Positions 47 through 37,880 of a stretch of DNA of 44,739 bases are shown here, piece by piece. Source of the DNA: a virus (taxonomy: Duplodnaviria; Heunggongvirae; Uroviricota; Caudoviricetes). The position numbers and the translations under genes were made by a program. The notes under the pieces were generated by a model. That model ran no database searches, was not told the origin of the DNA, and saw only the letters and a list, made by a program, of their open reading frames with translations. Each line of letters begins with the position of its first letter. Within the stretch, counting starts at the first letter, position 1. Location: IMG/VR virus record IMGVR_UViG_2713896776_000002. One strand, 5' to 3'.

Positions 47-1705
47 TTGGCAGCATCACCGCTACGCGCCAACATGGATGCCGCCAACTACAAGCACGTG
101 GTGCTGGGGCTTATCTTCCTCAAGTATGTGTCCGATGCCTTCGAGGCGCGTCAGCAGGAGCTAATCACCTTGTTCCGCGATGTCGGCAACCCGGACAACA
201 TCTATGCCATGTCGCGCGACGGTTACGACTCTGATGAAGAGTACGCACAGGCGATTGTGGATGAACTGGAGGTGGAAGATTACTACACCGAAAAGAACAT
301 CTTCTGGGTGCCGAAAGCCGCGCGCTGGGACACGCTGAAAAACAAAGCCATGTTGCCGACCGGCACCGTGCTGTGGGTGGATGAAACCACCGGCAAGGAT
401 GTGACGCTGCGCTCTGTGTCCTGGCTGGTGGATAACGCGCTCGATGAAATCGAAAAAACCAACCCGAAGCTGAAAGGTATTCTGAACCGTATCAGCCAGT
501 ATCAATTGGGCAACGAAGTGTTGACCGGGCTGATTAATACTTTCTCTGACGCCAACTTCAGCAACCCGGAATATAACGGCGAGAAGCTCAACTTAAAGAG
601 CAAAGATATTCTCGGTCACGTGTACGAATATTTCCTCGGTCAGTTCGCGCTGGCGGAAGGTAAGCAGGGCGGCCAGTATTACACGCCAAAAAGTATCGTC
701 ACCCTGATTGTTGAAATGCTGCAACCGTATAACGGGCGCGTGTATGACCCGGCGATGGGTTCCGGCGGGTTCTTTGTTTCCAGCGACCGTTTTATCGAAG
801 AGCACGCGGGCGAGAAGCAGTACAACGCCGCCGAGCAGAAGCGCAATATCTCTGTTTACGGCCAGGAGTCGAACCCGACCACCTGGAAGCTGGCGGCAAT
901 GAATATGGCGATCCGGGGTATCGACTTTAACTTCGGCAGCAAAAACGCCGACACCCTGCTGGACGACCAGCACCCGGATCTGCGAGCTGACTTCGTGATG
1001 GCGAACCCGCCGTTCAACATGAAGGAGTGGTGGAACGCCAAGCTGGAAAACGACGTGCGCTGGAAATACGGCACACCGCCGCAGGGCAACGCCAACTTTG
1101 CGTGGATGCAGCACATGATCCATCACCTTGCGCCAAAAGGTTCGATGGCGCTGCTGCTGGCGAACGGTTCGATGAGCTCCAACACCAACAACGAAGGCGA
1201 AATCCGCCGTAACCTGATCAAAGCCGATTTGGTCGAGTGCATGGTGGCGCTACCGGGCCAGCTCTTTACCAACACCCAAATCCCGGCCTGTATCTGGTTC
1301 CTGACCAAAGACAAATCCAGCGGCAACGGCAAAGCGCACCGCAAAGGCGAAGTGCTGTTTATCGACGCCCGCAAGATTGGCTTTATGAAAGACCGCGTGC
1401 TGCGTGACTTTACTCGTGAAGATATCGCCAGAATTGCCGACACCTTCCACAAATGGCAGGCAGATAAAGAGTACGAAGACGAAGCCGGATTCTGCTTCTC
1501 TGCAACGCTGGAAGATATTCAGAAAAACGACTTTGTGTTGACCCCTGGGCGCTATGTTGGTGCTACCGAGCAAGACGAAGATGATGAACCCTTTGCCGAG
1601 AAAATGGCACGATTGACGACGCAACTGAAAGATCAGTTGGAAGAGAGCGCGAACCTAGAAGCACAGATTAAGGCGAATCTGGGGGGGCTGGGTTATGAGT
1701 TTTGA
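47..1705 (+). CDS. hsdM: Type I restriction-modification system, DNA methyltransferase subunit HsdM
   Basis: 552-aa ORF; N6-adenine MTase motifs (DPAMGSGGFF = motif I, NPPF = motif IV); stop overlaps hsdS start. ORF starts at TTG 47 (first ATG at 74); in-frame TAA at 35-37 just upstream. Confidence 0.9.
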   Translation: MAASPLRANMDAANYKHVVLGLIFLKYVSDAFEARQQELITLFRDVGNPDNIYAMSRDGYDSDEEYAQAIVDELEVEDYYTEKNIFWVPKAARWDTLKNKAMLPTGTVLWVDETTGKDVTLRSVSWLVDNALDEIEKTNPKLKGILNRISQYQLGNEVLTGLINTFSDANFSNPEYNGEKLNLKSKDILGHVYEYFLGQFALAEGKQGGQYYTPKSIVTLIVEMLQPYNGRVYDPAMGSGGFFVSSDRFIEEHAGEKQYNAAEQKRNISVYGQESNPTTWKLAAMNMAIRGIDFNFGSKNADTLLDDQHPDLRADFVMANPPFNMKEWWNAKLENDVRWKYGTPPQGNANFAWMQHMIHHLAPKGSMALLLANGSMSSNTNNEGEIRRNLIKADLVECMVALPGQLFTNTQIPACIWFLTKDKSSGNGKAHRKGEVLFIDARKIGFMKDRVLRDFTREDIARIADTFHKWQADKEYEDEAGFCFSATLEDIQKNDFVLTPGRYVGATEQDEDDEPFAEKMARLTTQLKDQLEESANLEAQIKANLGGLGYEF

Positions 1706-3068
1706 GATTCCATTCTCTCATATTGCAGAGATTATTATGGGGCAATCCCCTAAAGGCGAAGAGGTTAATAATGAGGGGATAGGACTCCCCTTATTGAATG
1801 GACCTACAGAGTTTACTGACCGTTACCCTGCACCTGTGCAGCATACTGCATATGCAAAAAAAATATCGCTACCAGGAGATATTTTATTTTGTGTTCGTGG
1901 TTCAACAACCGGCAGGATGAACTATTCTGATCAAAAATATTGTATAGGTCGAGGTCTTGCTGCAATAAGAGGTCGAAACGGATATCCGACACCTTACGTT
2001 AAAGCTGTATTAGAGACTTATCTTCCTAAATTGCTGGCAGCTGCGACAGGATCAACTTTTCCTAATGTTAGCAAAGACCTTATTAATAATATTCCAGTAA
2101 GTGTTTTACCTGTTGAGAATGCTTGTAATATTAGTAAGCTCATCGAATTGCAGGAAGAGAAAGTATTCACGAATAATCAGATAAACCAAACCCTCGAACA
2201 AATGGCACAAGCCCTGTTCAAAAGCTGGTTTGTTAATTTTGAACCCGTAAAGGCCAAAATGGCAGTGCTGGAAGCGGGCGGTTCGCAGGAAGACGCAACG
2301 CTTGCCGCAATGACCGCCATTTCCGGGAAAAATGCGGATGCGCTAGCGGTTTTTGAGCGTGAACATCCTGAGCAGTATGCCGAATTAAAAGCCACGGCAG
2401 AGCTGTTTCCGTTGGCGATGCAGGACAGTGAGTTGGGGGAAATTCCGGAAGGGTGGACTCTATCTGAAATTGGAGCGCAAATCGATATTGCTGGTGGGGC
2501 AACGCCATCAACTAAAACACCTGATTTTTGGGATAATGGAGATATTCACTGGACTACACCTAAAGATTTATCCAACGTTAAAGACAAAATTTTACTGCAT
2601 ACAGAAAGAAAAATAACAAAAGCAGGATTGGGCAAAATTTCCTCTGGTTTACTACCTGTTAATACCGTGTTGATGTCATCACGTGCACCTGTGGGATACC
2701 TGGCAATTGCAAAAGTCCCTGTGGCGATTAATCAGGGATATATTGCCATGAAGTGTAATAAAGAGTTAAGCCCTGAATTCGTGTTACAGTGGTGTTCTGC
2801 AAACATGCCAGAAATTATATCTCGCGCAAGTGGTACCACCTTTGCTGAAATTAGTAAGAAAAATTTCAATCCAATTCCTCTTGTGAAGCCGCCACTTGAG
2901 CTTGTTAAAAATTATACCAAGCAAGTAAGTGCAATCTACTCGTTGATTGAAAATACTATGCGGGAAAATAATAGCCTAACCGAACTCCGCGACACCCTTC
3001 TCCCCAAACTTCTCTCGGGTGAAATTACCCTGCCGGAAGCAGAACAAATAATCAGCGAGGAAGCCTGA
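1695..3068 (+). CDS. hsdS: Type I R-M specificity subunit HsdS
   Basis: 457-aa ORF between hsdM and hsdR with overlapping start/stop codons; AT-rich variable regions flanking conserved stretches, typical of two target-recognition domains. Confidence 0.85.
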
Positions 3069-6000
3069 TGCTAAGCGAAGACGATTTAGAACAGCAATGC
3101 CTGCAATGGTTTGCTGAACAGGGCTGGGACGTGCTGCACGGGCCGGATATCGCACCGGATGGCGATAACCCGCTGCGTGCCTCATTTCATGATGTGTTTC
3201 TGCGCCCGGTAATGCTGGAACAGCTGCAAACCATCAATCCCCATCTCCCTGTTTCCGTGCTGGAGGAGGTGATACTGCGTATCGCCCATGCGCACAGCCC
3301 GGATCTGGTCGTCAGCAATAAAGTCTTTCATCACCTGCTGCTCAATGGCGTACCCGTTGAATATAAGCATGAAGACAAGGTAATTCACGATAACGCGCTG
3401 TTAATGGATTTCAACCATCCAGACAACAACCGCTTTATGGTGGTGAACCAGGTCGCCATTCAGGGAATAAAGCAGGTTCGTCGTCCGGATATCATTGGCT
3501 ATATCAACGGTCTGCCGGTGGCGGTGATTGAGCTGAAAAGCCCCATTGATGCTAACGCCGATATCTGGGCGGCGTTTAACCAGTTACAGACCTATAAAAA
3601 CGAATTGAGCGATCTGTTTATCTGTAACGAAGCGCTGGTGGTGAGCGATGGGCAGAATGCGCGCATTGGCTCTCTCACGGCGGATGAAGAGCGCTTCCTG
3701 CCGTGGAAAACGGTGGCGAACGAAAATGACAAACCGCAGTTTGACTGGCAGCTTAAAACCGTCGTGCAGGGCTTTTTTAACCGTGAATTATTGCTCGATT
3801 ATATCCGCTATTTTGTCCTGTTTGAGAATGACGGCAAACGGCTGATTAAGAAGATTGCCGCCTATCACCAGTTCCATGCAGTGCGTGAAGCGGTGACGGC
3901 GACGATTGTGGCCTCGACCGGTAAACACCTGCCGTTGCACAGTAATATTCAGCCCGGTAGTAAAAAAGCGGGGGTCGTCTGGCATACCCAGGGTTCCGGC
4001 AAAAGTATCTCTATGTGCTGCTATGCCGGGAAACTGCTGCAACAGGCGGAGATGAACAACCCGACCATTGTGGTGGTGACGGATCGCAACGATCTCGACG
4101 GCCAGTTATACGCCACCTTCTGCCAGGCACAGGATTTGCTGAAGCAGACGCCACTACAGGCCAACGATCGAGATGAATTGCGCGAGTTGCTTAATGCCCG
4201 TGAATCCGGCGGCATCATCTTTACCACCGTGCAGAAGTTTGCGCCGCTGGACGGTGAGCAGAGCCATCCGGCACTCAATCAGCGCAGCAACATCGTGGTG
4301 ATTTCGGATGAAGCGCACCGTAGCCAGTATGGCCTGAGCGCCACGCTGGACAGACAAACGGGTGTCTATAAATACGGCTACGCAAAACATATGCGCGACG
4401 CGCTGCCGAATGCGTCGTTTATGGGCTTTACCGGCACGCCGATTGCCTCGGAAGATAAAGATACCCGTGCCGTGTTCGGTGATTATGTCTCTATCTACGA
4501 CATTCAGGATGCGGTCGATGACGGCGCAACGGTGCCGATCTACTACGAATCCCGGCTGGCAAAACTCGACCTGAACCATGAAGAGTTGGAAACGCTATCC
4601 GATCAGGTCGATGAACTGGTAGAAGACGAAGAGACGGGTCAGCAGGAGAAAACCAAAGGCGACTGGAGCCGTCTGGAAAAGCTGGTCGGTTCAGAGCCGC
4701 GTATCAAACAGGTGGCGGCCGATCTGGTTCAACATTTTGAAACGCGCAATGCTGCTATGAACGGCAAAGCGATGATTGTCGCCATGAGCCGCGAGATCTG
4801 CGTGAAACTGTACGATGCCATCGTGGCGATCCGCCCGGAATGGCACAGTGAAGACGTTGAACAAGGGGCGATCAAAGTCATCATGACCGGATCGGCGTCA
4901 GATAAAGACCATCTGCAATCGCATATCTACAACAAACAGACCAAAAAACGCCTGGAAGCCCGCTTTAAAGATCTGAACGACCCGCTGAAACTGGTGATTG
5001 TGCGGGATATGTGGCTGACCGGGTTTGATGCCCCGTGCTGCCACACCATGTATATCGACAAACCGATGCGCGGCCATAACCTGATGCAGGCGATTGCCCG
5101 CGTTAACCGTGTGTTCCGGGATAAACCCGGCGGACTGGTGGTGGATTATATCGGCATTGCCAACGAGCTGAAGCAGGCGCTGAAAACCTATACCGACTCA
5201 AAAGGCAAAGGGCAGTCCACGGTCGATGCCCGGGAAGCCTTTGCCATTCTGCTGGAAAAAATCGACATTATTCATGGGATGTTTGCGCCCTCGGCAGGAA
5301 AACCCGGCTTCAGTTACGCAGGTTTTTCTCGCGACCCGTTAGCGTTCTTACGCGATGCGGTGAACTATATTCTGGGGCTGGATGACGGTAAAAAACGCTA
5401 CCTCGATGTTTCGCTGGCGATGAGTAAAGCCTGGTCACTGTGTAATACGCTGGATGAGGCGAAACCCTTACAGGAGGAGTTCGCGTTTCTTTCGGCGGTC
5501 AGGGTGGGGCTTATCAAGCTCGATCCGAAGGCAAAGTTTAGCCAGTCAGAAAAAAACTCTCTACTGAGCAAGATCCTCGATAACGCGGTTGTCGCGACCG
5601 GGGTTGAGGATGTCTTCGCACTCGCCGGGCTGGATAAACCGAACATAGGTTTGCTGTCCGATGAGTTTTTGGAAGAAGTGCGGGAAATGCCGCAGCGTAA
5701 TCTGGCAGTGGAACTGCTGGAAAAACTGCTCAATGACGGCATTCATGCCCGTTCGGGCAATAACGTGGTGCAGCAGAAGAAATACTCCGACCGACTGAAA
5801 GCGGTGCTGCTCAAATACAATAACCGCGCCATTGAGACCGCGCAGGTGATTGAAGAGCTGATCCAGATGGCGAAAGCGTTCCAGGAGGCGATGGCGCGTG
5901 ATGATGCGCTGGGGCTGACCCCGGATGAAATCGCCTTCTATGATGCGCTGGCTGAAAATGAAAGTGCAGTGCGTGAACTGGGCGATGATACGCTGAGAAA

Positions 6001-6199
6001 GCTGGCCATCGAAGTGACATTGAAATTGCGGCAGTCCACCACCGTGGACTGGCAGGTGCGTGAAAGCGTGCGTGCCCGATTGCGTATTCTGGTGCGCCAG
6101 ACGCTGCGTAAGTATAAGTATCCGCCGGACAAAACGCCGGGCGCCGTGGAACTGATTTTGAAGCAGGCAGAAGTGGTGTCGAACAGCTGGACAGTCTAA
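3068..6199 (+). CDS. hsdR: Type I R-M restriction subunit HsdR (helicase/nuclease)
   Basis: 1043-aa ORF; helicase motifs (GSGKS Walker A, DEAH box in [10 protein letters not shown]); ATG overlaps hsdS stop. Confidence 0.9.
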
Positions 6200-9099: not shown

Positions 9100-9312
9100 T
9101 CAAATAAGTTTGCTGCGTTGCGATAGCCATTCATCAATCTCTGATTCAACCCATCCAACAGATTTCACTCCGAGCATTCGCTTTTTGGGGAAGGAAGCGT
9201 CGTAACGCGGTGATTTGGGGTTCAACCAGTCGTAGATTGTTGCCCTTGCCATACCAGTTTTTTGGATTACCGTAGGTAAGCGGAGTATCCTAACGGTTGA
9301 TGGATTGTTCAT
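9100..9312 (-). CDS. alpA: AlpA-family transcriptional regulator / excisionase-like HTH protein
   Basis: 70-aa ORF; motif RILRLPTVIQKTGMARATIYDW... typical of the AlpA/phage-Xis HTH family; sits next to a P4-type integrase. Confidence 0.7.
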   Translation of the reverse strand: MNNPSTVRILRLPTVIQKTGMARATIYDWLNPKSPRYDASFPKKRMLGVKSVGWVESEIDEWLSQRSKLI

Positions 9313-11616: not shown

Positions 11617-11819
11617 GGGGAGTCTCCATGCGTTTAGGCCCAACGAAAACAATAGAGCTTTTCGTTGGGCCTATCAATGGGCCTAAAAGGTTCGGATTTA
11701 ATTAGTTCTCTTCGGACTTCGCGGGACAAAGTGAGGGCACAAAAAAGCCCGCAGGGCTTGCGCCGTGCGGGCTCTTAGGACTTCATCGGATGACTCTGGT
11801 AATCACCGATGGAGAATTT

Positions 11820-11851
11820 TGGTGGAGCTGGCGGGAGTTGAACCCGAGTCC
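11820..11851 (-). repeat. ssrA (tmRNA) 3'-terminal fragment = attachment-site core copy (att) at the junction of the two elements
   Basis: Minus-strand reading ggacTcgggttcaactcccgccagctccacca matches the tmRNA 3' end (ending CCA) with one mismatch; similarity stops after ~32 nt, so no full tmRNA gene is present. Confidence 0.7.
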
Positions 11852-11924
11852 GTATTTTTATAATTAGCTGAAATAAAACGATTAATACTAACCATTTTAT
11901 TCTGCGGATCTTTTGCGGCTCCTT

Positions 11925-14695: not shown

Positions 14696-15862
14696 TTATA
14701 TTGTTATCTTCTTCAAGCTTGTTTGTCCATCATATTCCTTCAGATATGAGCCATAGTGCCTGAAAAGCATCTCAGGCCCTTTATGCCCCATTTGAGCTGC
14801 AAGCCAAAACAGGTTTGCTCCCCGGCTGATATGTCTGGTGGCGAATGTATGCCTGGTTTGATATGGGTTTCTGTAACGAATACCTGCTTTTCGCAATGTT
14901 GGCACCCATGCTTTTTTCCTAATTGCATCAGCACTTGCCCAGGGTTTATTGGTCTTTGGATCTTCAAAGACAGTAGCATCCTTCATGAATGTAAATGGCT
15001 TCTGGTTTATCAACGCCAACATTGCTTCTTCAGTCAGTTCAACTTTACGGGTACCGGCTTTTGTCTTTGTTCCTTTGATAACTCCGACAACACTTGCGCT
15101 CTGAACATGGGCTGTTTTTCCAACAAAGTCGATATCATGCCATCGTAGGGCACATAATTCAGAACTACGCAGGCCTGTATGTATGGCGAACCGGAACAGA
15201 TTTTCCCATTGTTTGTTTCCGGCTGCTGCTAGTAATGCATCAACTTCTGCTGGTGATAGCGGATCAACCACATAGCTGCTTTCTGCTTCTGACTTATCAC
15301 TTTGGTAGCGCGAAGCAGTTACCAACGATACGGGGTTAATTTGAAGTACCCCATCGGTTACGGCTTCATCAAGTGCTGACCGCAGGAAAGATAACTGGTT
15401 GCGAATTGTTTTTAAGGTCGTTTTCTGGCTTTGAATCCACGCTTTCAGGATTGCTGGTGTTAATTCACTTGCAGGGCAAATGTGGAGTGAGGCTAACGCA
15501 CTACGGCATTTTTTATAACCACCAATCGTAGATGGTGAAAGTTTTCTCGTTTCGCAGATTTCAAGGTATTCGTCCAGGTACATTTTTACCGTTTTGCCTG
15601 CAGCAGCATTACCAAAAATTTTCAAACGAGCAGAACGGGGAAAATATTCCGCATAAATGAATGTTCCCCTTTCGATCTTATTATGAATTTCGCCGAGTGT
15701 GCGCTCGGCGTATTTAATGTTCTTTGGTGTTACTTCCAGATTGGAAAGAGGCTCACGACATTTAACGCCTTTGTAGGTGAAAGTTATATTGATCGTTTCG
15801 CCCTGGCGGTGTTTCCTGATTGTTACGCCGCGCGGTAGTTTGAGCAGTTTTGTCTGGCCCAT
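14696..15862 (-). CDS. Phage integrase, tyrosine recombinase
   Basis: 388 aa; C-terminal catalytic region ...RHTFATRHISRGANLFWLAAQMGHKGPEMLFRHYGSYL (R-H-R-Y signature); overlaps upstream xis. Confidence 0.9.
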   Translation of the reverse strand: MGQTKLLKLPRGVTIRKHRQGETINITFTYKGVKCREPLSNLEVTPKNIKYAERTLGEIHNKIERGTFIYAEYFPRSARLKIFGNAAAGKTVKMYLDEYLEICETRKLSPSTIGGYKKCRSALASLHICPASELTPAILKAWIQSQKTTLKTIRNQLSFLRSALDEAVTDGVLQINPVSLVTASRYQSDKSEAESSYVVDPLSPAEVDALLAAAGNKQWENLFRFAIHTGLRSSELCALRWHDIDFVGKTAHVQSASVVGVIKGTKTKAGTRKVELTEEAMLALINQKPFTFMKDATVFEDPKTNKPWASADAIRKKAWVPTLRKAGIRYRNPYQTRHTFATRHISRGANLFWLAAQMGHKGPEMLFRHYGSYLKEYDGQTSLKKITI

Positions 15863-16041
15863 TTTGCAACCTCACTAAGATCAATCCACCTCTCCTTAAC
15901 GCCTTCAACCTTTAAAACCTGAACACCTTCACGCCAAACACCGCGCTGTACACGTTTGTTTATTGCTTCAGGAGTTTCGCCAGTTTCTTTGCAATAAGTT
16001 GAGATAGGAACACAATCGAGGTTCAGCATATGTTTCTCCAC
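15823..16041 (-). CDS. Excisionase-like protein (Xis/TorI-like)
   Basis: 72-aa ORF immediately upstream of and overlapping int; small basic HTH-like protein. Confidence 0.55.
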   Translation of the reverse strand: MEKHMLNLDCVPISTYCKETGETPEAINKRVQRGVWREGVQVLKVEGVKERWIDLSEVAKWARQNCSNYRAA

Positions 16042-16088
16042 TTAGCCCGCTGCACATGGGCAGTAATATTAAATTCCAGTCCTGATAA

Positions 16089-16304
16089 TTAATTTTGTTC
16101 TCTGGTTGCTACTTGTTTTATTGGCCTGATGCTGTCCAGGAGCAGACGGCGGCGCATGTTTGGCGCGCCCCAACGGTAACCAGTCTTTTTGTCGTAGGAT
16201 TCACAACGTCCGACAACCCAGGAGGTTTCAGTGGAATGTAATTTCATCCGCTTTTCACCGTCTCGGGTGATAACAATTCCTGTATGAGTTTTTATCACGC
16301 TCAT
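16089..16304 (-). CDS. Hypothetical early-left prophage protein (YfdT-like position)
   Basis: 71-aa ORF overlapping neighbour stop; part of a co-directional operon. Confidence 0.4.
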   Translation of the reverse strand: MSVIKTHTGIVITRDGEKRMKLHSTETSWVVGRCESYDKKTGYRWGAPNMRRRLLLDSIRPIKQVATREQN

Positions 16305-16663
16305 TTTTTATTCTCCGGTGCTTTCGGCATTACTGCCCAGTGGGTAATATTGACGTTTTCAAGGTCCCCGACCTGAAATGTCCACTGCCATTCTCCGGTT
16401 TCTTTTTGCCCCCATGTGTACCAGAGAGAACGCCAGCCAATCAGCCAGCCTTCTCCATTAGCATCAAATAACAGAACACTTTCATGTGCTGGCGGCAGTT
16501 CAGCTGACACTGGTATTACTTTGTTTTCCAGTGCTGCACATTTAGCTTCAAGCGCATCGAATTTACGTATCAGGTATTCAGCATCCGTTTCATTCACTTT
16601 CAGATCTCGCGGTACACATTTCCCGCGAAGAAACCCTTCCATTTCGAAAACATTCATGCGCAT
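16301..16663 (-). CDS. Hypothetical early-left prophage protein (YfdS-like)
   Basis: 120-aa ORF, translationally coupled to neighbours. Confidence 0.45.
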   Translation of the reverse strand: MRMNVFEMEGFLRGKCVPRDLKVNETDAEYLIRKFDALEAKCAALENKVIPVSAELPPAHESVLLFDANGEGWLIGWRSLWYTWGQKETGEWQWTFQVGDLENVNITHWAVMPKAPENKK

Positions 16664-17190
16664 TTGCGTAACTCCGATAACTCGTTGAAGCGCTCAATAA
16701 ACATCCCGTAGGCATGGCTCGGTGCCAGTGGAATCACGTTGAACATCTCTGTTGCCGGGATACCTTCCAGTACAGGCCAGAAAGAGCCATCATCAAGCCC
16801 GAGATCGCGGCGTTCGGTTGCCAGCATGATGAGATCGGCATATTTCACAGGCGTGCTCATAACCGTGGGTAACCCGTATTTCTCACGGATTACGGCGTCT
16901 ATTTTTTCTTCCATCCGTTTATAGTCGGGAAGAAGGCGTTTCAGTGGCGCGGGGATGTCCTGGCAATACGCTTCTGTCGCATCATGCATTAACGCTTCAA
17001 AAGCAAATTCCTGCGGTACCAGCTGGCTGCAAAGCACCGCATGTTGGGCGACGCTGTAGAAGTGTGAAAGATGGCCGGCAAAGCGACAGATATTTGAAAG
17101 GGAAACCGCGATATCGTTAATATCGATGTTGTCTTTATTTATCCTGTCATAATAAAAATGCTTCCCGGAAAAAGTTTTAATAAATGACAT
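16654..17190 (-). CDS. HD-domain phosphohydrolase (YfdR-like 5'-deoxynucleotidase)
   Basis: ORF 16654-17217; start placed at MSFIKTFSGKHFYY; HD motif region (...FAGHLSHFYSVAQHAVL...MHDATEAY...). Confidence 0.7.
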   Translation of the reverse strand: MSFIKTFSGKHFYYDRINKDNIDINDIAVSLSNICRFAGHLSHFYSVAQHAVLCSQLVPQEFAFEALMHDATEAYCQDIPAPLKRLLPDYKRMEEKIDAVIREKYGLPTVMSTPVKYADLIMLATERRDLGLDDGSFWPVLEGIPATEMFNVIPLAPSHAYGMFIERFNELSELRKCA

Positions 17191-17317
17191 TTTGTTCTCC
17201 ACGTATATGCGCTGCACCGCGCTGAATTCTGGTAAAAAGAATCCCTCACCATCCGGCGATTATTGAGTAAATTACGTTTCCATAAATGCCCCCGCAGGGG
17301 CATTTGCAGTAATGAAA

Positions 17318-18142
17318 TCAGGCGGTGAAAGTACCAATAAAGGTTTCTACTTTGCTGTCCTTGAATTTCTCAACAAGCAGATCACGAAATTCGTTAGCCA
17401 TTTCTTCCTGCACCGCCTCCAGCTGAATAATGCGTAGAACCAGTACAGGACGATCGCCAGTGATAATACTGAGGCGTAATTTAAACGGACGTTCTTTCAG
17501 ACCTTCAAACGGAACGCATTTAAATTCAAATGCCACTGGCATAATGTCTTTGGTCTTCGCTTCGACAGACTCCATCAGGGAGCGTTTGCCGCTGAAGTCA
17601 TTATCTTCAAAATCAGCGGTCTGGTTTGCTTCAATCGTGATTTTACGGACAGCCGCAGCCGCTTTTGTTGCCTGAATAGCGTCACCATTAGCATCAAAGC
17701 CCACAAGATAGTCGGCCCAGTCTTCAATCCATTCTGCCAGTGACTTCTGGGAGTTACGCTCGCCGTTAACAGACAACAGAGCAGAGAACGGTGCTGTCTT
17801 TTTCAGTTTGAGTGTGGCGGTGTTATCTGCGTGACCTGGTTCATCAATAGTACCCAGGTTAAGCACACTGACGGCACGCATATTATCAGCATCGATAAAG
17901 CAGCGGGTGCCTTCATCTGCAAGATCTTTAGAATAACGGGTAAAGTCATCGATGCTGGCAGTGGAAAGCGCACCACGGAAACGGAAGCGATTTAAATTAA
18001 ATTTTTCCAGATCATGAATGCGGAAATTCTCAGGCAATGCCACAGCATCGGCACCAATCTTACTGATAATTTCATTAACACCCTGAGCAGAAATAAGGGC
18101 ATGGATTTGATTAATTGCGGTTGCGTCTAAGTTCTGAGACAT
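17318..18142 (-). CDS. DUF2303-family prophage protein (YfdQ-like)
   Basis: 274-aa ORF; sequence and position recall yfdQ of CPS-53/KplE1. From memory. Confidence 0.6.
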
Positions 18143-18207
18143 AATAAGTCCTCACTATATAAAGATATTCAGTGATGAGATAAATAATCAGTTAATTAAA
18201 AACGATA

Positions 18208-18570
18208 TTAACGACCTGCTGCGCGGAGTTTTCCGTCAGGTTCACCGGCAAGAGTCAGTAACTGTCCCTGGTCTTCCTGCAGAATAGTCAGGCGACCACC
18301 GCGATTGACATACATCGGCGTTTCGGTGGTGTCTTCTTCGGAAATTTTCCCGCGGTTAGTCGGGCGAACATATGAGAGTTTGTGTTTGATTTTCACTCGG
18401 TTCTCATCAAACGGTTCGATTTCCAGGTTGAGCGAGACCTTACCTTTGGTTTTCGTGTTCATCACACCGGAAGCGACTTCACTGAGAACTGCGCCGATTT
18501 TGGTTTCAAATACGCCGCCGTCCAGCTCCCCGATAAATGCCTGCACATCAGTACTGCGTTCGCTAGCCAT
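18208..18570 (-). CDS. YfdP-like prophage protein
   Basis: ORF 18208-18888, but only the last 120 codons (from MASERSTDVQ...) look protein-like; the upstream 106 codons are GC-rich junk-like. Confidence 0.5.
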   Translation of the reverse strand: MASERSTDVQAFIGELDGGVFETKIGAVLSEVASGVMNTKTKGKVSLNLEIEPFDENRVKIKHKLSYVRPTNRGKISEEDTTETPMYVNRGGRLTILQEDQGQLLTLAGEPDGKLRAAGR

Positions 18571-19000
18571 TTTGCTGCTCCTCATCATATCGACCCTGCA
18601 AGGCCGGTTAGTTTCTCCACAAAACAGAGAAGAACACCTGCGGTGACTGCCGCCCGGATGGATTGGGTTATGAGCCCGTCGTCCGGTGATGCTCTTCTCT
18701 GTTTTGTAAAAAGGACGGTACCAGCCGGAAGCAAGGGTACAAGCTGGTACCGCCAAGACAACACACAGCATAAAGTTGTGGTGCCGGGTGCCTCCCGGTG
18801 CCTGGCGAAGGTTGTACACCAGACGGGTGGGTATCCACAGAAGGTCGACTGTCAGCCTTAACCTTAACCCGCGTGCGCTGAGCCGCATTCACCACAACGC
18901 TAAGGATTCTCTCTGGTTGAAAATTCTTAGCTGTTATGTGCCTGCTTTTAGCCACATCAGGCGAGGTGGACCTGGTTATTCCCCAACAACAAGGATTCGG

Positions 19001-19006
19001 TATAAT
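19001..19006 (+). promoter_or_regulatory. Candidate -10 hexamer (TATAAT) for the peptide/membrane-protein operon
   Basis: Perfect TATAAT 33 bp upstream of the ATG at 19039; weak -35. Confidence 0.3.
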
Positions 19007-19038
19007 CTGGATATCCCAACAACAGGTAGGAAGGAAAT

Positions 19039-19122
19039 ATGTACGTAGATAGCAATGAAAAATTTCATGTTCCGGTAAATCAGAGACCAGCACCGATCCC
19101 TGAGCCGAAACCTGAAATGTAA
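19039..19122 (+). CDS. Small proline-rich peptide 1 (27 aa; MYVDSNEKFHVPVNQRPAPIPEPKPEM)
   Basis: ATG preceded by AGGAAGGA RBS; stop lies 10 nt before the membrane-protein start; shares the H-[VI]-P ... RP-x-P ... PKP motif with two downstream mini-ORFs. Confidence 0.35.
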   Translation: MYVDSNEKFHVPVNQRPAPIPEPKPEM

Positions 19123-19132
19123 GGGAATAGAG

Positions 19133-19612
19133 ATGACTCGAGACGATCTAGCATTCGATATTCATTATTCTTTCTTTCTTGAGAAAATGAATTACACCCT
19201 TTTAAATCGGATAGACAAGAGCATAACTCTTGTTCTCATTGTCTTGGGCTTTTCTGTTTTTGCGCCATATAGCAATATGTTTATTTTTGGCGCATCTGTA
19301 GCTATTTTGTCGGTGCTTCAATTGGTATACCAATTTGGGCAGGAAGCTGGCTTATCAAAGGAACAGATGCGACAGTATAAAAGGTTGATTGTTGAGTTTT
19401 CCTCCCTTTCTGATGACGAACTACGCACTCGGTTTTTAAAGGTTCAAGACGCTGATAGTAATCCATGGAGATCTTTACAAGATGCTGCGTTCAAACGGAC
19501 CTGTATTGCGCTGGGACGTGTTGATGAGTCAGAAATATCATTCATGCATAGCGTTATCGCATGGTTTGCTGGAGATTTGCCTCGGTCAAAAAGGTGTAAT
19601 AATGACAAATAG
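19133..19612 (+). CDS. Predicted membrane protein with two N-terminal TM helices (candidate exclusion/abortive-infection factor)
   Basis: 159 aa; hydrophobic segments ITLVLIVLGFSVFAPY and MFIFGASVAILSVLQLVYQFG; lies between the early-left operon and cI, convergent to cI. Confidence 0.5.
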   Translation: MTRDDLAFDIHYSFFLEKMNYTLLNRIDKSITLVLIVLGFSVFAPYSNMFIFGASVAILSVLQLVYQFGQEAGLSKEQMRQYKRLIVEFSSLSDDELRTRFLKVQDADSNPWRSLQDAAFKRTCIALGRVDESEISFMHSVIAWFAGDLPRSKRCNNDK

Positions 19613-27980: not shown

Positions 27981-28344
27981 GCTGGCTATCTCTGCATTCT
28001 TCTTTACTGTCATCGGTTCTTTCATCTGGTCTGCCAACCACTACTACAGCAAATATCAGCACGAAAAGAAACGTGCTGATGAGGCTGTACGAAATGCTGA
28101 ATCTGCAACAGCCATTACCCGTAACGTCCTGCAATCACTGCAAATCGTCAATACAGTTATAGAGGTTAACCAGCATGCAAAACAGCAGATCGCACTGGAG
28201 TCACAGAGAACCCAGAAAGATATCAAAGTGGCTGTTGCGGATGATGATTGTGCTGCACGCCTTGTGCCTGCTGCCGCTGCTGAGCGGTTGCGGAAGTACG
28301 CGGACAGTTTACGTGAGCACTCCGGCTACAACATTACCGACTAG
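27964..28344 (+). CDS. Rz: Rz-like inner-membrane spanin (i-spanin)
   Basis: 126 aa; N-terminal TM helix (LAISAFFFTVIGSFIWSA) then charged coiled-coil; follows the endolysin. Confidence 0.6.
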   Translation: MKLSYKLAISAFFFTVIGSFIWSANHYYSKYQHEKKRADEAVRNAESATAITRNVLQSLQIVNTVIEVNQHAKQQIALESQRTQKDIKVAVADDDCAARLVPAAAAERLRKYADSLREHSGYNITD

Positions 28345-28498
28345 TCTGACTTCTGAAACACCTGTACCGTTCATACCAAATCCTCTGACGTATGGTGCCA
28401 GCCTGGAGCTGAATGTGAGTCTGTTGTCTGCACTGGCTAACTGCAATCGGGATAAAGCTGATATTCGTAAAATAGATGCAGAGAGAACTAACCATTAA
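28241..28498 (+). CDS. Rz1: Rz1-like outer-membrane lipoprotein spanin (o-spanin), overlapping Rz in another frame
   Basis: Starts inside Rz and extends 154 nt past it; lipobox LLSGC; proline-rich mature region. Confidence 0.5.
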   Translation: MMIVLHALCLLPLLSGCGSTRTVYVSTPATTLPTSLTSETPVPFIPNPLTYGASLELNVSLLSALANCNRDKADIRKIDAERTNH

Positions 28499-28519
28499 GC
28501 AATAAAATTGTCAAATTGA

Positions 28520-29146
28520 TCAGTTGTCAAATGAATATACGTTAAAGGTATATGTCGACATAATTTCACCAAGTACCTCAATACATATACTTTTTTTATG
28601 AAAATTACTGGGAAATGAACTTAGCTCTTCAAGGTATTGCACATAAGTGCTGATATCACTTGCATCACGTTCAAGGAATTTCACTTGGCCAATAGAAGGA
28701 GTATTAATCCTGGTTCTTTGCTGGATTATATGGATAAAATGTGTAGTTGGTGAAACTATTACTCTTGAAATATCGGAAATGATGTCTTCTTGAACTTGCC
28801 GATAAAGTAAATCCTTTGGGTAATGGTGTTTGATCTCGATGGTTGCAACATTGCCATTATGTTCAGACGTTAATATCGACTGGTTATAAAGTGATATGTC
28901 AACAGCGCCGATACCGAGTTTTGGATGCTCACTTAAAGCAGTTAGTGTGCTGATTTGATTGAGAATAACAACTAACTCATCACGTATTTGAGTTTCATGT
29001 TTGCGATTGTAGAAGTAGCAATTCAGTTCATTTAACTTTTTATGCATCCTATCGTGACTAATTGCTTCGATCAGTAAATCCTGAATCATACTTTTCTCTA
29101 GGTAATCCGAACGGTTGTAAGTGACAGTATTGTGCTGGCATGTCAT
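28520..29146 (-). CDS. Hypothetical moron protein (possible D...E-x-K nuclease-like motif)
   Basis: 208 aa, AT-rich, opposite strand to the late operon; GIGAVDISLY ... VATIEIKHH is compatible with a PD-(D/E)xK core. Speculative. Confidence 0.4.
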   Translation of the reverse strand: MTCQHNTVTYNRSDYLEKSMIQDLLIEAISHDRMHKKLNELNCYFYNRKHETQIRDELVVILNQISTLTALSEHPKLGIGAVDISLYNQSILTSEHNGNVATIEIKHHYPKDLLYRQVQEDIISDISRVIVSPTTHFIHIIQQRTRINTPSIGQVKFLERDASDISTYVQYLEELSSFPSNFHKKSICIEVLGEIMSTYTFNVYSFDN

Positions 29147-29189
29147 TAGTATGTAAAGGTATTGTGAATGCCAGCAAGATAACGAAGTA

Positions 29190-29543
29190 TCATCGATAGA
29201 AAAACTTTACGGCCCACTCGTAAACCGCTTTGTAAATCGGTTCATGGTAAATACTATCGATACTATTCAGATGTGCGATCATCGCCTCCACAGTTGTAGT
29301 GGTTGTTTCTAATATTTCGATTATTGCAGGGCGGTCATCATCTTCATCGAAGTATTCGAACAGCAGTACAGGTTTACCATGCCATTCAGCATCTGAGACT
29401 CTAAGGTTACAACTACCGCTCAACTCAAAGTGAATTTTGTAATTACCTTCTACAGAATGGCCTACGGGGAAAAAGCATAGGGTGTCATCTTTGTTTAAAA
29501 GCCATTCCCATTCATAACTATTCATTTGTGAACTCCTGTTCAT
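29190..29543 (-). CDS. Hypothetical acidic moron protein, upstream partner of the 208-aa gene
   Basis: 117-aa ORF co-directional with 28520-29146, 43-bp gap; no known motif. Confidence 0.35.
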   Translation of the reverse strand: MNRSSQMNSYEWEWLLNKDDTLCFFPVGHSVEGNYKIHFELSGSCNLRVSDAEWHGKPVLLFEYFDEDDDRPAIIEILETTTTTVEAMIAHLNSIDSIYHEPIYKAVYEWAVKFFYR

Positions 29544-29675
29544 TGAGTTTCAACAACTATCAACTACATCCAGCGAAGCATAAAAGATCGTTTATGGCAA
29601 AACCGGAGTGGAGTGCGATTCGATTCTGAGAAGGATGCCACGTATCGCACGCGAACCATCCAAGAGGATTATGCA

Positions 29676-30026
29676 ATGCCACCACGAACCCCAAAAGCCT
29701 GCCGCGTTCGCGGCTGCCCCCATACCACCACTGACTCGTCAGGCTATTGCGAAAGCCACAAAAGCGAAGGCTGGAAGCAATACAAGCCAGGCCAGTCCCG
29801 TCATCAGCGCGGCTACGGTTCGAAGTGGGACTGTATCCGCGCGCGTGTCCTGAAGCGTGACAAAGGCCTGTGTCAGTTATGTCTGCGTGCTGGTGTGGTG
29901 CGTGAGGCGAAAACCGTTGACCACATCATCTCTAAAGCGCGTGGCGGCACTGATGCCGACAGTAATCTACAGAGCCTGTGTTGGCCGTGTCATAAGGCGA
30001 AGACGGCCCGTGAATGGCTGAAGTAA
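29676..30026 (+). CDS. HNH endonuclease (terminase-associated)
   Basis: ORF 29613-30026; ATG 29676 after AAGAGGA RBS; Cys/His HNH motif region (CQLCLRAG ... VDHIISKARGG ... NLQSLCWPCHKAKT); adjacent to terS. Confidence 0.8.
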   Translation: MPPRTPKACRVRGCPHTTTDSSGYCESHKSEGWKQYKPGQSRHQRGYGSKWDCIRARVLKRDKGLCQLCLRAGVVREAKTVDHIISKARGGTDADSNLQSLCWPCHKAKTAREWLK

Positions 30027-30052
30027 GAACCAGTTTCCACTGCCAGAGGGGA

Positions 30053-30112
30053 GGGGCGGGTCAAATCCCTGTGACCTGACGTCTTCCGGACTGCCCGCCC
30101 CATCGTTTTTTT
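30053..30112 (+). terminator. GC-rich hairpin plus T-run between HNH and terS (terminator or cos-associated structure)
   Basis: GGGGCGGG (30053-30060) pairs with CCCGCCCC (30094-30101), followed by atcgTTTTTTT. Confidence 0.35.
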
Positions 30113-30151
30113 ATACCCGCGAAAAATGAAATTTAACCAGGAGTGCCGCAT

Positions 30152-30646
30152 ATGGCTGGAACGGCGGGGCGTTCCGGGCGTCGCCCCAAGCCAACGGCGC
30201 GCAAGGCGCTGGCCGGAAACCCCGGCAAGCGAGCCCTGAACAAAGATGAACCTGTTTTTACGCCCATCAAAGGTGTTGAGCCACCGGAGTGGTTCGCAGA
30301 AGAAGATCTCCCTCTCGCCACGATCATGTGGCAACTGACAACCAAAGAACTCTGCGGTCAGGGCCTGCTGTGCGTGACTGACCTGGCGGTACTTGAGCGG
30401 TGGTGCGTGGCCTATGAGTTCTGGCGACGTGCCGTGAAAAATATTGCCAGCCAGGGCAACACCATCACCGGTGCAATGGGCGGCAGGGTCAAAAACCCGG
30501 AGCTGACCGCCAAGAAAGAACAGGAGTCCGAGATGAGCAGCACGGGGGCAATGCTCGGACTCGACCCCAGCAGCCGCCAGCGTCTGATAGGCCTGGCGGG
30601 GCAGAAGAAAGCCACTAACCCGTTTCTGAAAATCATCGAATCATGA
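30152..30646 (+). CDS. Terminase small subunit
   Basis: ORF 30143-30646; ATG 30152 after CAGGAG RBS; basic N-terminus; stop overlaps the terL start. Confidence 0.65.
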
Positions 30647-32376
30647 GCCGGAAATCTTACCCCAACGTAAATGCTGCCAATCAGTATGCCCGTGATGTCG
30701 TGCGGGGAAAGATTGTGGCCTGCCAGTTTGTGATTCAGGCCTGCCAGCGCCATCTTGATGACCTGATGGCGGAAAAAAGTAAGTCGTTTCGTTACCGCTT
30801 CGACAAGGACCTGGCTGAACGGGCCGCCAAATTTATTCAGCTGTTGCCGCACACCAAGGGTGAGTGGGCATTTAAGAGGATGCCCATCACGCTGGAGCCG
30901 TGGCAGCTCTTTGTGATCTGCTGCGCGTTTGGCTGGGTCAATAAAGGCTCCCGGCTGCGCCGCTTCCGTGAGGTGTATACCGAAATCCCCCGTAAGAACG
31001 GCAAATCGGCAATCTCTGCCGGTGTCGCCCTGTATTGTTTTGCCTGTGATAACGAGTTTGGCGCGGAAGTGTATTCCGGTGCCACGACAGAGAAACAGGC
31101 GTGGGAAGTCTTTCGCCCGGCGCGACTGATGTGTAAACGCACACCCATGCTGACGGAAGCGTTCGGGATTGAGGTTAACGCCTCAAACATGAACCGTCCG
31201 GAGGATGGCGCGCGGTTTGAACCGCTGATCGGTAACCCCGGTGATGGATCATCACCCCACTGTGCGGTGGTGGATGAATATCACGAGCACGCCACCGATG
31301 CGCTTTACACCACGATGCTTACCGGGATGGGGGCGCGACGTCAGCCACTGATGTGGGCCATTACTACTGCCGGGTACAACATTGAGGGGCCGTGCTACGA
31401 CAAACGGCGGGAAGTTATCGAGATGCTCAACGGTTCGGTACCCAACGATGAACTGTTCGGGATCATCTATACCGTTGACGAAGGTGACGACTGGACCAAC
31501 CCACAGGTGCTGGAAAAAGCCAACCCGAATATCGGGGTGTCGGTTTACCGTGAGTTTTTGTTAAGTCAGCAACAGCGTGCGAAAAATAACGCCCGTCTGG
31601 CAAACGTCTTTAAAACAAAACACCTCAATATCTGGGTGTCGGCGCGTTCGGCGTATTTCAACCTGGTGAGCTGGCAGAGCTGCGAGGATAAATCACTGAC
31701 TCTTGAGCAATTCGAGGGGCAGCCGTGCATTCTGGCCTTTGACCTGGCGCGTAAACTGGATATGAACAGCATGGCGCGACTTTATACCCGCGAGATTGAC
31801 GGTAAAACGCATTACTACAGTGTGGCCCCGCGTTTCTGGGTACCGTATGACACGGTGTACAGCGTCGAGAAAAATGAAGATCGCCGGACAGCCGAACGCT
31901 TTCAGAAATGGGTGGAAATGGGCGTCCTGACCGTTACCGATGGTGCAGAGGTGGATTATCGCTACATCCTCGAAGAGGCCAAAGCGGCGAACAAAATCAG
32001 CCCGGTCAGCGAGTCACCCATCGACCCCTTCGGGGCGACCGGGCTGTCACATGACCTTGCTGATGAAGACCTGAATCCCGTCACTATCTTCCAGAACTTC
32101 ACCAATATGTCCGATCCGATGAAAGAGCTGGAAGCAGCGATTGAATCGGGACGTTTTCATCATGACGGCAATCCCATCATGACCTGGTGTATCGGCAACG
32201 TGGTCGGCAAAAACATGCCGGGTAACGATGATGTGGTGAAACCCGTCAAAGAGCAGGCGGAAAACAAAATTGACGGTGCAGTTGCGCTGATTATGGCGGT
32301 TGGCAGAGCCATGCTGTACGAGAAAGAAGACACGCTGTCTGATCACATTGAGTCCTACGGGATCCGCTCGCTTTAA
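30643..32376 (+). CDS. Terminase large subunit
   Basis: 577 aa; ATPase motifs (EIPRKNGKS Walker A-like, CAVVDEYHE Walker B-like) and C-terminal nuclease region; upstream of portal. Confidence 0.9.
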
Positions 32377-32387
32377 CTGAGGTAATT

Positions 32388-32570
32388 ATGATCATGCTGA
32401 TTCTCGCGCCTCTGGTGGGCGTGCTGGGGGTGCTTTTGCTGGCGTATGGTGCCTGGCTGATTTATCCCCCTGCGGGGTTTGTTGTTGCCGGGGCGTTGTG
32501 CCTGTTCTGGTCGTGGCTGGTGGCGCGATATCTCGACCGTACACAGCTGTCTGTTGGTGGAGGTAAATAG
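32388..32570 (+). CDS. Small hydrophobic protein (60 aa) between terL and portal
   Basis: Two hydrophobic stretches; tight fit between neighbours; may be spurious. Confidence 0.3.
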
Positions 32571-33811
32571 TGTTCTTTTCGGGATTATTTCAACGAAAAA
32601 GTGACACACCGGTGACCACGCCAGCAGAGCTGGCGGATGCTATCGGGCTGTCATACGACACCTATACCGGAAAGCAGATCAGCAGCCAGCGGGCCATGCG
32701 ACTGACGGCGGTTTTTTCCTGCGTCAGGGTGCTGGCAGAGTCGGTCGGGATGTTGCCCTGCAATCTGTATCACCTGAACGGCAGCCTGAAGCAGAGAGCC
32801 ACTGGCGAACGTCTGCATAAGCTGATCTCCACGCATCCCAATGGCTATATGACGCCGCAGGAGTTCTGGGAGTTGGTGGTCACCTGTCTGTGCCTGCGGG
32901 GAAACTTTTACGCCTACAAAGTGAAAGCATTTGGCGAAGTGGCTGAACTGCTGCCCGTCGATCCCGGCTGTGTGGTACCGAAGCTTAACAGTAGCTGGGA
33001 GCCGATCTATCAGGTCACATTCCCGGATGGCTCCACGGATGTACTGAGCCAGGAGGATATCTGGCATGTGCGTACGCTGACGCTGGACGGACTGGTGGGG
33101 CTGAATCCCATCGCCTATGCCCGCGAGGCAATATCGCTGGCAGCTGCGACCGAAGAGCACGGGGCCAGACTGTTCAGCAATGGCGCGGTGACGTCGGGTG
33201 TGTTGCGTACAGAGCAGACGCTGTCAGATCAGGCTTATGAGCGCCTGAAGAAAGATTTTGAGGAGCGTCACACCGGGCTTGGCAATGCTCACCGCCCGAT
33301 GATCCTTGAGATGGGGCTGGACTGGAAGTCGATGGCGCTGAACGCCGAGGACAGCCAGTTCCTGGAAACCCGCAAGTTTCAGCTTGAAGAAATCTGTCGT
33401 CTGTTCCGTGTGCCATTGCACATGGTGCAGAACACCGATCGTGCCACCTTCAACAATATCGAAGAACTGGGGCTGGGATTTATCAACTATTCACTGGTGC
33501 CGTATCTGACCCGCATTGAGCAGCGGATCAACACCGGACTGGTACGAAAAAGTAAGCAGGGCGTTTATTACGCCAAATTTAACGCCGGGGCGTTACTGCG
33601 CGGGGATATGAAGTCCCGTTTTGAAGCCTACGCCACCGGGATTAACTGGGGAATTTACTCTCCCAATGACTGCCGCGACCTGGAAGATATGAATCCGCGT
33701 CCCGGTGGTGATGTCTATCTCACACCGATGAACATGACCACGAAACCCTCCGATGGCAGTAAAGCCGGTAAGCAGAAGGATAACGCCAATGCAGACGAAA
33801 CAACGTCTTGA
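32570..33811 (+). CDS. Portal protein (HK97 family)
   Basis: 413 aa; GTG start after GGTGGAGG RBS; position and size between terL and prohead protease. Confidence 0.85.
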   Translation: MFFSGLFQRKSDTPVTTPAELADAIGLSYDTYTGKQISSQRAMRLTAVFSCVRVLAESVGMLPCNLYHLNGSLKQRATGERLHKLISTHPNGYMTPQEFWELVVTCLCLRGNFYAYKVKAFGEVAELLPVDPGCVVPKLNSSWEPIYQVTFPDGSTDVLSQEDIWHVRTLTLDGLVGLNPIAYAREAISLAAATEEHGARLFSNGAVTSGVLRTEQTLSDQAYERLKKDFEERHTGLGNAHRPMILEMGLDWKSMALNAEDSQFLETRKFQLEEICRLFRVPLHMVQNTDRATFNNIEELGLGFINYSLVPYLTRIEQRINTGLVRKSKQGVYYAKFNAGALLRGDMKSRFEAYATGINWGIYSPNDCRDLEDMNPRPGGDVYLTPMNMTTKPSDGSKAGKQKDNANADETTS

Positions 33812-34439
33812 TGTACCGCTGAGTCTGAAATCTGTCAGTGACTCCGGTGAGTTTGAAGGGTATGGCTCCGTCTTTGGTGTAAAGGACAGCCACGATGATG
33901 TGGTGATGTCCGGGGCATTTGCTGCTTCCCTGCGGGCGTGGAGTGACAGAAAAGCGTTACCTGCGCTGCTCTGGCAGCACCGCATGGATGAACCCATCGG
34001 TGTTTACACCGAAATGAAGGAAGACGATGTCGGGCTTTACGTCAGGGGACGGTTGCTTATTGATGATGATCCCCTCGCAAAACGCGCACATGCACACATG
34101 AAGGCCGGTTCGTTAACCGGCCTTTCTATTGGGTACGTCCTGAAAGACTGGGAATACGACCGGAGCAAAGAAGCCTTTCTGCTGAAAGAAATCGACCTCT
34201 GGGAAGTCAGCCTGGTGACGTTCCCGTCTAACGACGAGGCGCGGATCAGCGACGTCAAGAACGCACTGGCCCGCGGGGAAATCCCCGAACAGAAAAAAAT
34301 CGAAAGAGTCCTGCGTGATGTCGGACTCTCCCGTACCCAGGCCAAAGCATTCATGGCCGGGGGCTATGGCGCACTGTCCCTGCGCGACGCTGAGGATGTG
34401 GGCTCTGCACTGAATGCACTGAAAAATCTGAACTTCTAA
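33789..34439 (+). CDS. Prohead protease (HK97 family, S78)
   Basis: ORF 33753-34439; start placed at MQTKQRLDVPL; motif GYGSVFGVKDSHDDVVMSGAF. Confidence 0.8.
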   Translation: MQTKQRLDVPLSLKSVSDSGEFEGYGSVFGVKDSHDDVVMSGAFAASLRAWSDRKALPALLWQHRMDEPIGVYTEMKEDDVGLYVRGRLLIDDDPLAKRAHAHMKAGSLTGLSIGYVLKDWEYDRSKEAFLLKEIDLWEVSLVTFPSNDEARISDVKNALARGEIPEQKKIERVLRDVGLSRTQAKAFMAGGYGALSLRDAEDVGSALNALKNLNF

Positions 34440-34453
34440 TCAGGAGAAATACG

Positions 34454-35659: not shown

Positions 35660-35666
35660 TCACTCA

Positions 35667-35686
35667 GGGGCGCGGAACCGCGCCCC
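35667..35686 (+). terminator. Strong GC hairpin immediately after the capsid gene (attenuator/terminator candidate)
   Basis: GGGGCGCGG-aac-CCGCGCCCC perfect stem 8 nt after the stop; weak U-tract. Confidence 0.4.
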
Positions 35687-35708
35687 CTGTTCTGACGGGT
35701 GAAGAATC

Positions 35709-35909: not shown

Positions 35910-35911
35910 GT

Positions 35912-37704: not shown

Positions 37705-37723
37705 ACTTACGTTTCCCGGTTGC

Positions 37724-37807: not shown

Positions 37808-37880
37808 CCGTTTGCTCCACTACAGGAGCGCGGCATCACCATTAAAGCCCTTCCACTGCCTGGTTAACGGTGTTGCATTG

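Follow-up and report, generated by a model that had tools for sequence, protein, structure and literature searches.

An orphan 3′ end of ssrA at the junction of a CP4-57-type island and a phiNP-like prophage

Introduction

Islands and phages insert into the 3′ end of ssrA, the tmRNA gene, in such a way that the gene is regenerated while a 3′ fragment of it is displaced, and tandem arrays occur in which each element carries its own integrase. Islander has catalogued 125 arrays of at least two elements, and no target is more enriched than the tmRNA gene (PMC4383910). Williams' "Traffic at the tmRNA gene" (2003), as it is cited in PMC4383910 and in Table 1 of PMC10107115, places several types of integrase at enterobacterial ssrA. 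In Salmonella LT2, an element with a P4-type integrase and the prophage Fels-2 are both found at the gene (PMC10107115).

Two described systems bear closely on the locus considered here. Islands of the CP4-57 type leave a 3′ repeat of ssrA at their distal end, often with a deletion of 1 to 5 nt near the discriminator (PMC10107115). Excision of CP4-57 itself from K-12 deletes one base of ssrA, with the result that tmRNA is inactivated and ribosome rescue passes to ArfA (PMC10107115). The other system is the Citrobacter phage phiNP, whose attP and attB were determined experimentally to be the 25-bp 3′ end of ssrA, TGGTGGAGCTGGCGGGAGTTGAACC (PMC6456863). It has been shown for C. rodentium as well as E. 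coli K-12 MG1655 that integration of phiNP duplicates this 3′ end and leaves the host with a whole ssrA once more (Magaziner et al. 2019; PMC6456863). Since CP4-57 lies immediately after ssrA in K-12, a phiNP lysogen of MG1655 is an array of the same kind as the one described below.

The stretch of DNA analyzed here (the window) comprises 44,739 nt of one strand of an IMG/VR virus record (IMGVR_UViG_2713896776_000002; Caudoviricetes). A sequence-only reading had noticed in it a copy of the ssrA 3′ end, lying between a P4-type integrase gene and a lambdoid prophage, and had proposed that two elements occupy the ssrA att site in tandem. The proposal holds: two integrases of different types, one for each element, flank the fragment (Table 1), and the same junction is found within a complete array in E. 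coli NWU_3. The reading's appeal to CP4-57-type islands at ssrA was also right, but the fragment was very probably made by integration of the phage rather than being the duplicated core of the island itself. Both partners are close relatives of elements that have been studied experimentally, CP4-57 and phiNP, and a junction of this sort is already known in kind, well documented, and ordinary.

Results

The ssrA fragment

Positions 11820 to 11851 of the window read, on the plus strand, TGGTGGAGCTGGCGGGAGTTGAACCCGAGTCC. The reference for comparison was ssrA from three complete E. coli genomes, intact copies that are identical to one another. Aligned with these, the stretch is the reverse complement of the tmRNA 3′ end, CCA included, with 31 of 32 nt matching, exactly as the sequence-only reading had counted, and the match grows to 32 of 33 with the addition of base 11852. 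The sole mismatch is at 11847, where the window has A and the wild type has C, and positions 11820 to 11846 form a perfect block of 27 nt. The same A is seen in all four phage-bearing genomes that were picked without using that base. Past 11852 the similarity ends: the window continues with TATTTTTATAATTAG..., which is dissimilar to the body of ssrA (AAATTCCTACATCC...).

The body of tmRNA had been reported missing, and it is indeed absent from the window. ARAGORN finds neither tRNA nor tmRNA in the window, and Rfam gives no match to it at the gathering threshold. When the threshold is made permissive, the tmRNA model of Rfam produces a 5′-truncated match of 24.9 bits (the gathering score is 47), with high posterior values confined to the last ~35 positions, i.e., the T-arm and the 3′ acceptor strand. 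The fragment is the 3′ terminus of the tmRNA gene and contains no internal part of it, in agreement with the Islander criterion, and its first 25 nt (11820 to 11844) are the published attP/attB core of phiNP.

None of 100 dinucleotide-preserving shuffles contained a match to the fragment. It is present as a single copy in the window with up to 3 mismatches tolerated, and the search for further direct repeats of the 32-nt core that the sequence-only reading had proposed thus came up empty at that tolerance. Nor were further copies of the core (taken as 33, 24, or 18 nt) found when indels were permitted, either in the window or in the whole of the corresponding island of E. coli EC09.

Table 1. 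Features on either side of the ssrA fragment, in order of position in the window (percentages are identities; "K-12" refers to CP4-57 proteins of E. coli K-12)
Feature	Position	Strand	Remarks
Type I R-M cargo: hsdM (5′ end lost to IS1), hsdS, hsdR	61..6199	+	island
yfjJ	6801-7427	-	96% to K-12 YfjJ; CP4-57-type backbone
yfjI/DUF3987	7558-8973	-	74% to K-12 YfjI; CP4-57-type backbone
alpA, AlpA-family regulator/excision factor	9100..9312	-	90% to K-12 AlpA
intA, P4-type tyrosine integrase, 413 aa	10375..11616	-	Arm-DNA-bind_3, Phage_int_M, Phage_integrase; 96.6% to K-12 IntA, full length
Island arm, 203 bp, ssrA core to intA	11617..11819	-	sigma-70-like promoter match at 11677-11649, upstream of intA
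Intrinsic terminator, GC-rich hairpin and U-run	11745..11775	-	~45 nt downstream of the CCA end
Orphan (probably displaced) ssrA 3′ end	11820..11852	-	T-arm and 3′ acceptor strand to CCA; 32/33
Phage P arm next to the core (TATTTTTATAATTAGCTGAAATAAAAC...)	11853..11924	-	homologous to the P arm of the phage LLS attP
D12-class adenine methyltransferase	11925-12824	-	cargo slot between att and int
ATPase, 594 aa, AAA_15/AAA_21	12904-14688	-	cargo slot; 86.8% to phiNP ATPase
Prophage tyrosine integrase, 388 aa	14696..15862	-	Arm-DNA-bind_2 and Phage_integrase; 93.3% to phiNP Int (388 aa), 86% to LLS Int
Excisionase	15823..16041	-	90.3% to annotated phiNP xis over 72 aa
Rest of visible prophage	16042..36985	.	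includes early-left genes, lysis genes, portal, head-tail genes
CI-like repressor	20033-20659		prophage
Q antiterminator	25854-26606		prophage
Large terminase	30643-32376		prophage
HK97-type capsid	34454-35659		prophage
Transposable element, 7,754 bp	36986..44739	+	in prophage late region, at the 3′ end of a head-tail gene; ends the window

The island to the left

The CCA end of the fragment lies 204 bp from the ATG of intA (11820 to 11616), the distance that had been claimed, and the same distance separates intA from intact ssrA in EC09. The deduced integrase has the length annotated for intA in relatives. A P4-type integrase gene beside the 3′ end of ssrA, with alpA, yfjI, and yfjJ coming after it (74 to 97% to the K-12 proteins), is the arrangement of a CP4-57-type island, and the likeness extends to the order of genes in K-12 (ssrA-intA-yfjH-alpA-yfjI-yfjJ) and to the 204-bp spacer between ssrA and intA, which is 98.7% identical over a 153-nt probe. 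The two islands differ in that K-12 carries abpAB as cargo whereas the window carries type I R-M genes, in that the yfjH homologue of the window is only 58% identical and apparently split, and in that CP4-57 adjoins a functional ssrA while the island of the window adjoins the orphan fragment. On the conserved CP4-57-type backbone, defense cargo is exchanged (R-M versus abpAB).

The R-M genes hsdS and hsdR are intact and hsdM is cut by IS1; the system looks otherwise complete. The first 60 nt of the window are the end of that IS1 (three annotated IS1 copies match it at their ends with 100% identity), which removes the 5′ end of hsdM. The yfjH-like gene that separates alpA from intA (9372 to 10316) falls into two ORFs, 9420 to 9785 and 9807 to 10316, and may be a pseudogene. 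In the corresponding position, EC09 is annotated with two short hypothetical proteins.

EC09 provides the closest view of the island without the phage. Positions 61 to 10300 of the window are 100% identical to EC09 and positions 10300 to 11852 are 99.9% identical, but in EC09 the same island sequence continues straight into an intact ssrA and then smpB. The homology of the window to genomes of the EC09 type breaks at 11852, which is where the fragment ends. The terminator close to the CCA end is supplied by the island, and island-only genomes have it after intact ssrA, with an identical flank. A match on the minus strand at 11741 to 11829 to IsrM, an Rfam model of an sRNA from Salmonella islands, was rejected as a gene: it scores 32 bits, where the gathering score is 376, and covers just the terminator hairpin. 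The match is limited to a nearly identical terminator sequence, and similar hairpins follow the fragment in other types of islands.

A distal ssrA repeat belonging to the island was sought with up to 3 to 4 errors in the 11.8 kb of island visible here and in the whole EC09 island, and none was found. The far end of the window's island lies outside the window, and the distal end of the EC09 island is ridden with IS elements. The distal end may be degraded, a matter that leaves unaffected the membership of the integrase and backbone in the CP4-57 family.

The prophage to the right

A lambdoid prophage had been said to start directly to the right of the fragment, and it does, at position 11853. 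The word "lambdoid" suits the regulatory layout: CI, Q, lysis genes, and an HK97-type head are present, and the PHROG matches (integrase, repressor of the CI type, Q-like antiterminator, large terminase, portal, major head protein) follow one another in a lambda-like order, in agreement with the annotations of relatives. The word is less apt in that the relative phiNP is a myovirus and in that two cargo genes come before int.

It is phiNP that emerges as the closest sequenced phage, through its Int, its Xis, and its att-proximal ATPase (Table 1). Int and Xis of the window are orthologs of those of phiNP, and the order att, cargo, int, xis is common to the window, phiNP, and the phage LLS. The record of the phiNP genome terminates exactly at the ssrA core. 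The two phages are nonetheless distinct. DNA identity is 84.6% over the att-int module, and only that module matched at the search sensitivity used; the core of phiNP has its mismatch at position 26, that of the window at position 28; the window prophage bears a 7.75-kb transposable insert; and phiNP is reported to be a myovirus, while the tail type of the window prophage falls outside the visible part.

The free phage LLS of Escherichia (PQ299149.1) is helpful because its attP is annotated, along with a "tmRNA pseudogene." The attP consists of a P′ arm (...GGTGTCCTGCTGAGACTGCTAACTTCC...CAGTCCAATCATGAT), a 33-nt ssrA-like core with one mismatch, and a P arm (TAATTCTATATCTAGTTGAAATATAAC...). 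What comes after intact ssrA in NWU_3 matches the P′ arm, and what adjoins the fragment on its right in the window matches the P arm. LLS shares with the window the layout attP core, cargo gene, int, xis, exonuclease, but it has another cargo gene in the att-int slot, and the mismatch in its core is elsewhere. Both phiNP and LLS have a single core mismatch, at positions other than that of the window but along the same body-side edge. By these comparisons, the ssrA homology that the phages carry decays at the 5′ strand of the T-stem. A search of IMG/VR for an attP of this kind in a free phage found none, all 11 matches being integrated copies.

The slot between att and int (11925 to 14688), with a GC content of ~32 to 33%, is a variable slot for defense or moron genes, occupied by a different gene in LLS. 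The methyltransferase of the window matches PADLOC PD-Lambda-5_B over its full length (E = 5e-124). PD-lambda-5 is described as a compacted RM+Abi system of prophages (PMC9519451). The identification of the methyltransferase-ATPase pair as PD-lambda-5 was rejected, since the best PADLOC matches of the ATPase are generic, of the PtuA, AriA, and GajA type.

As far as they can be seen, Int, Xis, and the two att arms look intact. With the interruption at 36986, the prophage may have lost the ability to form particles.

The array in other genomes

The array that the window shows in part can be seen whole in NWU_3. This genome is 100% identical to the window from 11853 to 16000 and has the identical junction; in order, it carries an island with a P4-type integrase, the fragment, the methyltransferase, the ATPase, int, other phage genes, intact ssrA, and smpB. 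The intact ssrA and the fragment are on the same strand, with the fragment downstream, and the ssrA is identical to that of EC09 and of phage-free genomes. Within the NWU_3 prophage (20765 to 23424), the small terminase gene is followed directly by a tape-measure gene, an order that points to a large deletion of head genes. The same prophage has a Mu-like baseplate and tail-fiber module and a pinE invertase.

Three states of occupancy are found in E. coli. Most frequent by a wide margin is the island alone, as in EC09, K-12, and numerous other genomes. The phage alone is represented by Esc3, in which the fragment adjoins the glaH backbone. Phage and island together are represented by the window, by NWU_3, by KCJ3K291 (the same junction, with a variant island flank), and by Ec-042, where the phage lies beside an island with a different integrase. 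In Esc3, ~160 nt downstream of the fragment (8843 to 9002) share 89% identity with the phage P′ arm found after intact ssrA in NWU_3. An earlier occupant from the same phage family may have left this stretch behind, or it may be a conserved terminator module adjacent to att.

A 301-nt probe spanning the junction is covered to at least 80% in 10 of 5,426 complete E. coli genomes, and the block of methyltransferase, ATPase, and int is found in 85 of the 5,426. None of these complete genomes has the exact island together with the exact phage, and the best match to the junction is 99.3% over the 301 nt. The exact junction was also absent from genome contigs sampled at one genome per species (0 matches). 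Taken over 11 IMG/VR contigs and four genomes, the flank on the phage side of the fragment is constant, while the flank on the CCA side falls into at least five unrelated classes. This is the pattern expected of the distal junction of a phage that uses a busy site.

A transposable element at the end of the window

The 7,754-bp element that interrupts the late operon of the prophage is separate from the att junction. Its termini are TGAT...ATCA, and the motifs GATAAATA and ATCCGTGAGATAA are common to its imperfect inverted repeats. Three other E. coli genomes also contain the element, at unrelated sites that each have a 6-bp target duplication: TGTCTT in a lambdoid capsid gene (AW1.7), TTCGGC in a PTS gene, and ATGAGT in the interval between sbmC and dacD. 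It matches 632 of the 5,426 complete E. coli genomes and is found as well as a 7,799-bp IMG/VR contig that ends exactly at the termini.

No recognizable transposase or integrase is encoded by the element. Its affinities are with PhiKM, a Bcepmuvirus of E. coli, whose tape measure has a homologue here with 70% identity. Lower identities are seen for the small terminase (N-terminus, 45%), for a protein at the protease/scaffold position of PhiKM (N-terminal part, 41%), for a DUF3102 protein (34%), and for an activator of the Mor/C type (29%). The left terminus matches an end-like sequence of PhiKM in 19 of 20 nt, with similarity over ~55 nt. On the strength of these resemblances, the element looks like a non-autonomous mini-BcepMu and is possibly a satellite of transposable phages; a literature search on satellites of transposable phages brought up nothing relevant. 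The element is more unusual than the ssrA junction and merits attention as a separate item.

Discussion

In all likelihood, the fragment is the 3′ end of ssrA, displaced by a phiNP-like phage that inserted between ssrA and a CP4-57-type island. The steps would have been as follows. A temperate phage of the phiNP type, through site-specific recombination by its Int, would have integrated into the T-arm/acceptor end of an ssrA that already had a CP4-57-type island downstream. The attP of the phage would have brought its own copy of the ssrA 3′ end, so that a whole ssrA would have formed again where the prophage ends on its far, tail-gene side. The displaced copy would be a recombinant, with positions 11847 to 11852, including the mismatched A, drawn from the phage attP, and with the CCA-proximal part, the 203-bp spacer, the terminator, and intA drawn from the island-bearing chromosome. 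If the one side came from the phage and the CCA side from the island, then the crossover would lie within 11820 to 11846. The fragment may now serve as two sites at once: the distal att of the prophage, as partner in excision by Int and Xis, and the integrase-proximal att of the island. Because the 27 nt are identical, excision of the phage would be expected to return the locus to the state of EC09, with a wild-type ssrA.

The window is a draft contig that begins in an IS1 end and whose last base is the last base of the transposable element. Since it is bounded by repeats, the intact ssrA, the other end of the prophage, and the far end of the island are out of view. Within the window, the phage has one ssrA 3′ repeat, the fragment, and the complete array is seen in relatives only. 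The intact ssrA is predicted to lie to the right of the window, beyond the remaining tail genes, and its 3′ flank would be the P′ arm of the phage (...CCGTCCAATCATGAT joined to TGGTGGAGC...). Just past the right end of the window, the transposable element would be followed by a 6-bp duplication, GGTGCA, and the DNA beyond would lead to the tail genes.

We infer, within this explanation, both the order in which the elements arrived and their competence for excision today. One may imagine the reverse order, in which the phage was there first and the CP4-57-type island later entered not the functional ssrA but the displaced 33-nt fragment. Such an entry would not lack for a target, as the 27 perfect nucleotides of the fragment include the crossover region of P4-type ssrA integrases (PMC10107115, Table 1), and the presence of the same phage end beside several different islands means that combinations have formed repeatedly. 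Nevertheless, EC09, which is free of the phage, has an identical island (100% over 10.2 kb) directly on intact ssrA, and phiNP is able to enter a K-12 ssrA already occupied by CP4-57; arrival of the phage second is for these two reasons more parsimonious. The prevalence of the island-only state also weighs against the reverse order, which is judged unlikely. With either order of arrival, the identity of the fragment is unchanged.

Other readings would take the phage out of the fragment's history altogether. CP4-57-type islands do leave a 3′ repeat of ssrA at their far end (PMC10107115), and the fragment might be such an attR-type distal repeat, unrelated to any insertion of a phage. It is found, however, at the integrase-proximal end, with the 204-bp spacer and the terminator that accompany intact ssrA in island-only genomes; its body-side flank is a phage attP arm homologous to that of LLS; and it is free of the small deletion typical of the distal copies of P4-type elements (PMC10107115). 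A distal repeat is for these reasons exceedingly improbable. Scarcely better is the notion of a deletion or rearrangement that destroyed ssrA and left a relic, with no tandem site-specific array: just 33 nt of ssrA are present and the remainder is not in the window, as such an event would have it, yet the break coincides precisely with the edge of the attP core of the phage, IMG/VR contigs and no fewer than 10 complete E. coli genomes have the same junction, and NWU_3 retains the intact gene at the other end of its prophage. That leaves a relic very improbable. A draft contig with repeats at its ends invites the suspicion of a chimeric assembly, or else the similarity might be fortuitous, but the shuffled sequences gave no match and independent complete genomes have the junction with every base the same, so that neither artifact nor chance is credible. 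Displacement of the ssrA 3′ end by the phage is thus the preferred account of the fragment.

So understood, the locus has what is seen in tandem tRNA and tmRNA arrays as defined by Islander, where regenerated tDNA and displaced 3′ fragments delimit elements that each have their own integrase. It differs in nothing of kind, although the island's distal fragment was not located here. The main value of the finding is for annotation, as the boundary between a defense island and a phiNP-like prophage is fixed to the base. The fragment also allows the place of the functional tmRNA gene in the source genome to be predicted, and it illustrates the heavy traffic already known at ssrA.

Perhaps there is a further consequence, though the suggestion is tentative and on balance doubtful. 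Insertion of the phage might part the functional ssrA from the excision machinery of the island, in which case a second occupant would disable a prophage "regulatory switch." The arm region of IntA adjoins the orphan copy only, so excision of the island should scar the orphan and spare the functional tmRNA gene. The prediction follows from the known requirement for binding to arm sites, and it presupposes a distal att for the island. If it is true, then excision of the island in the tandem state would no longer damage the functional tmRNA gene.
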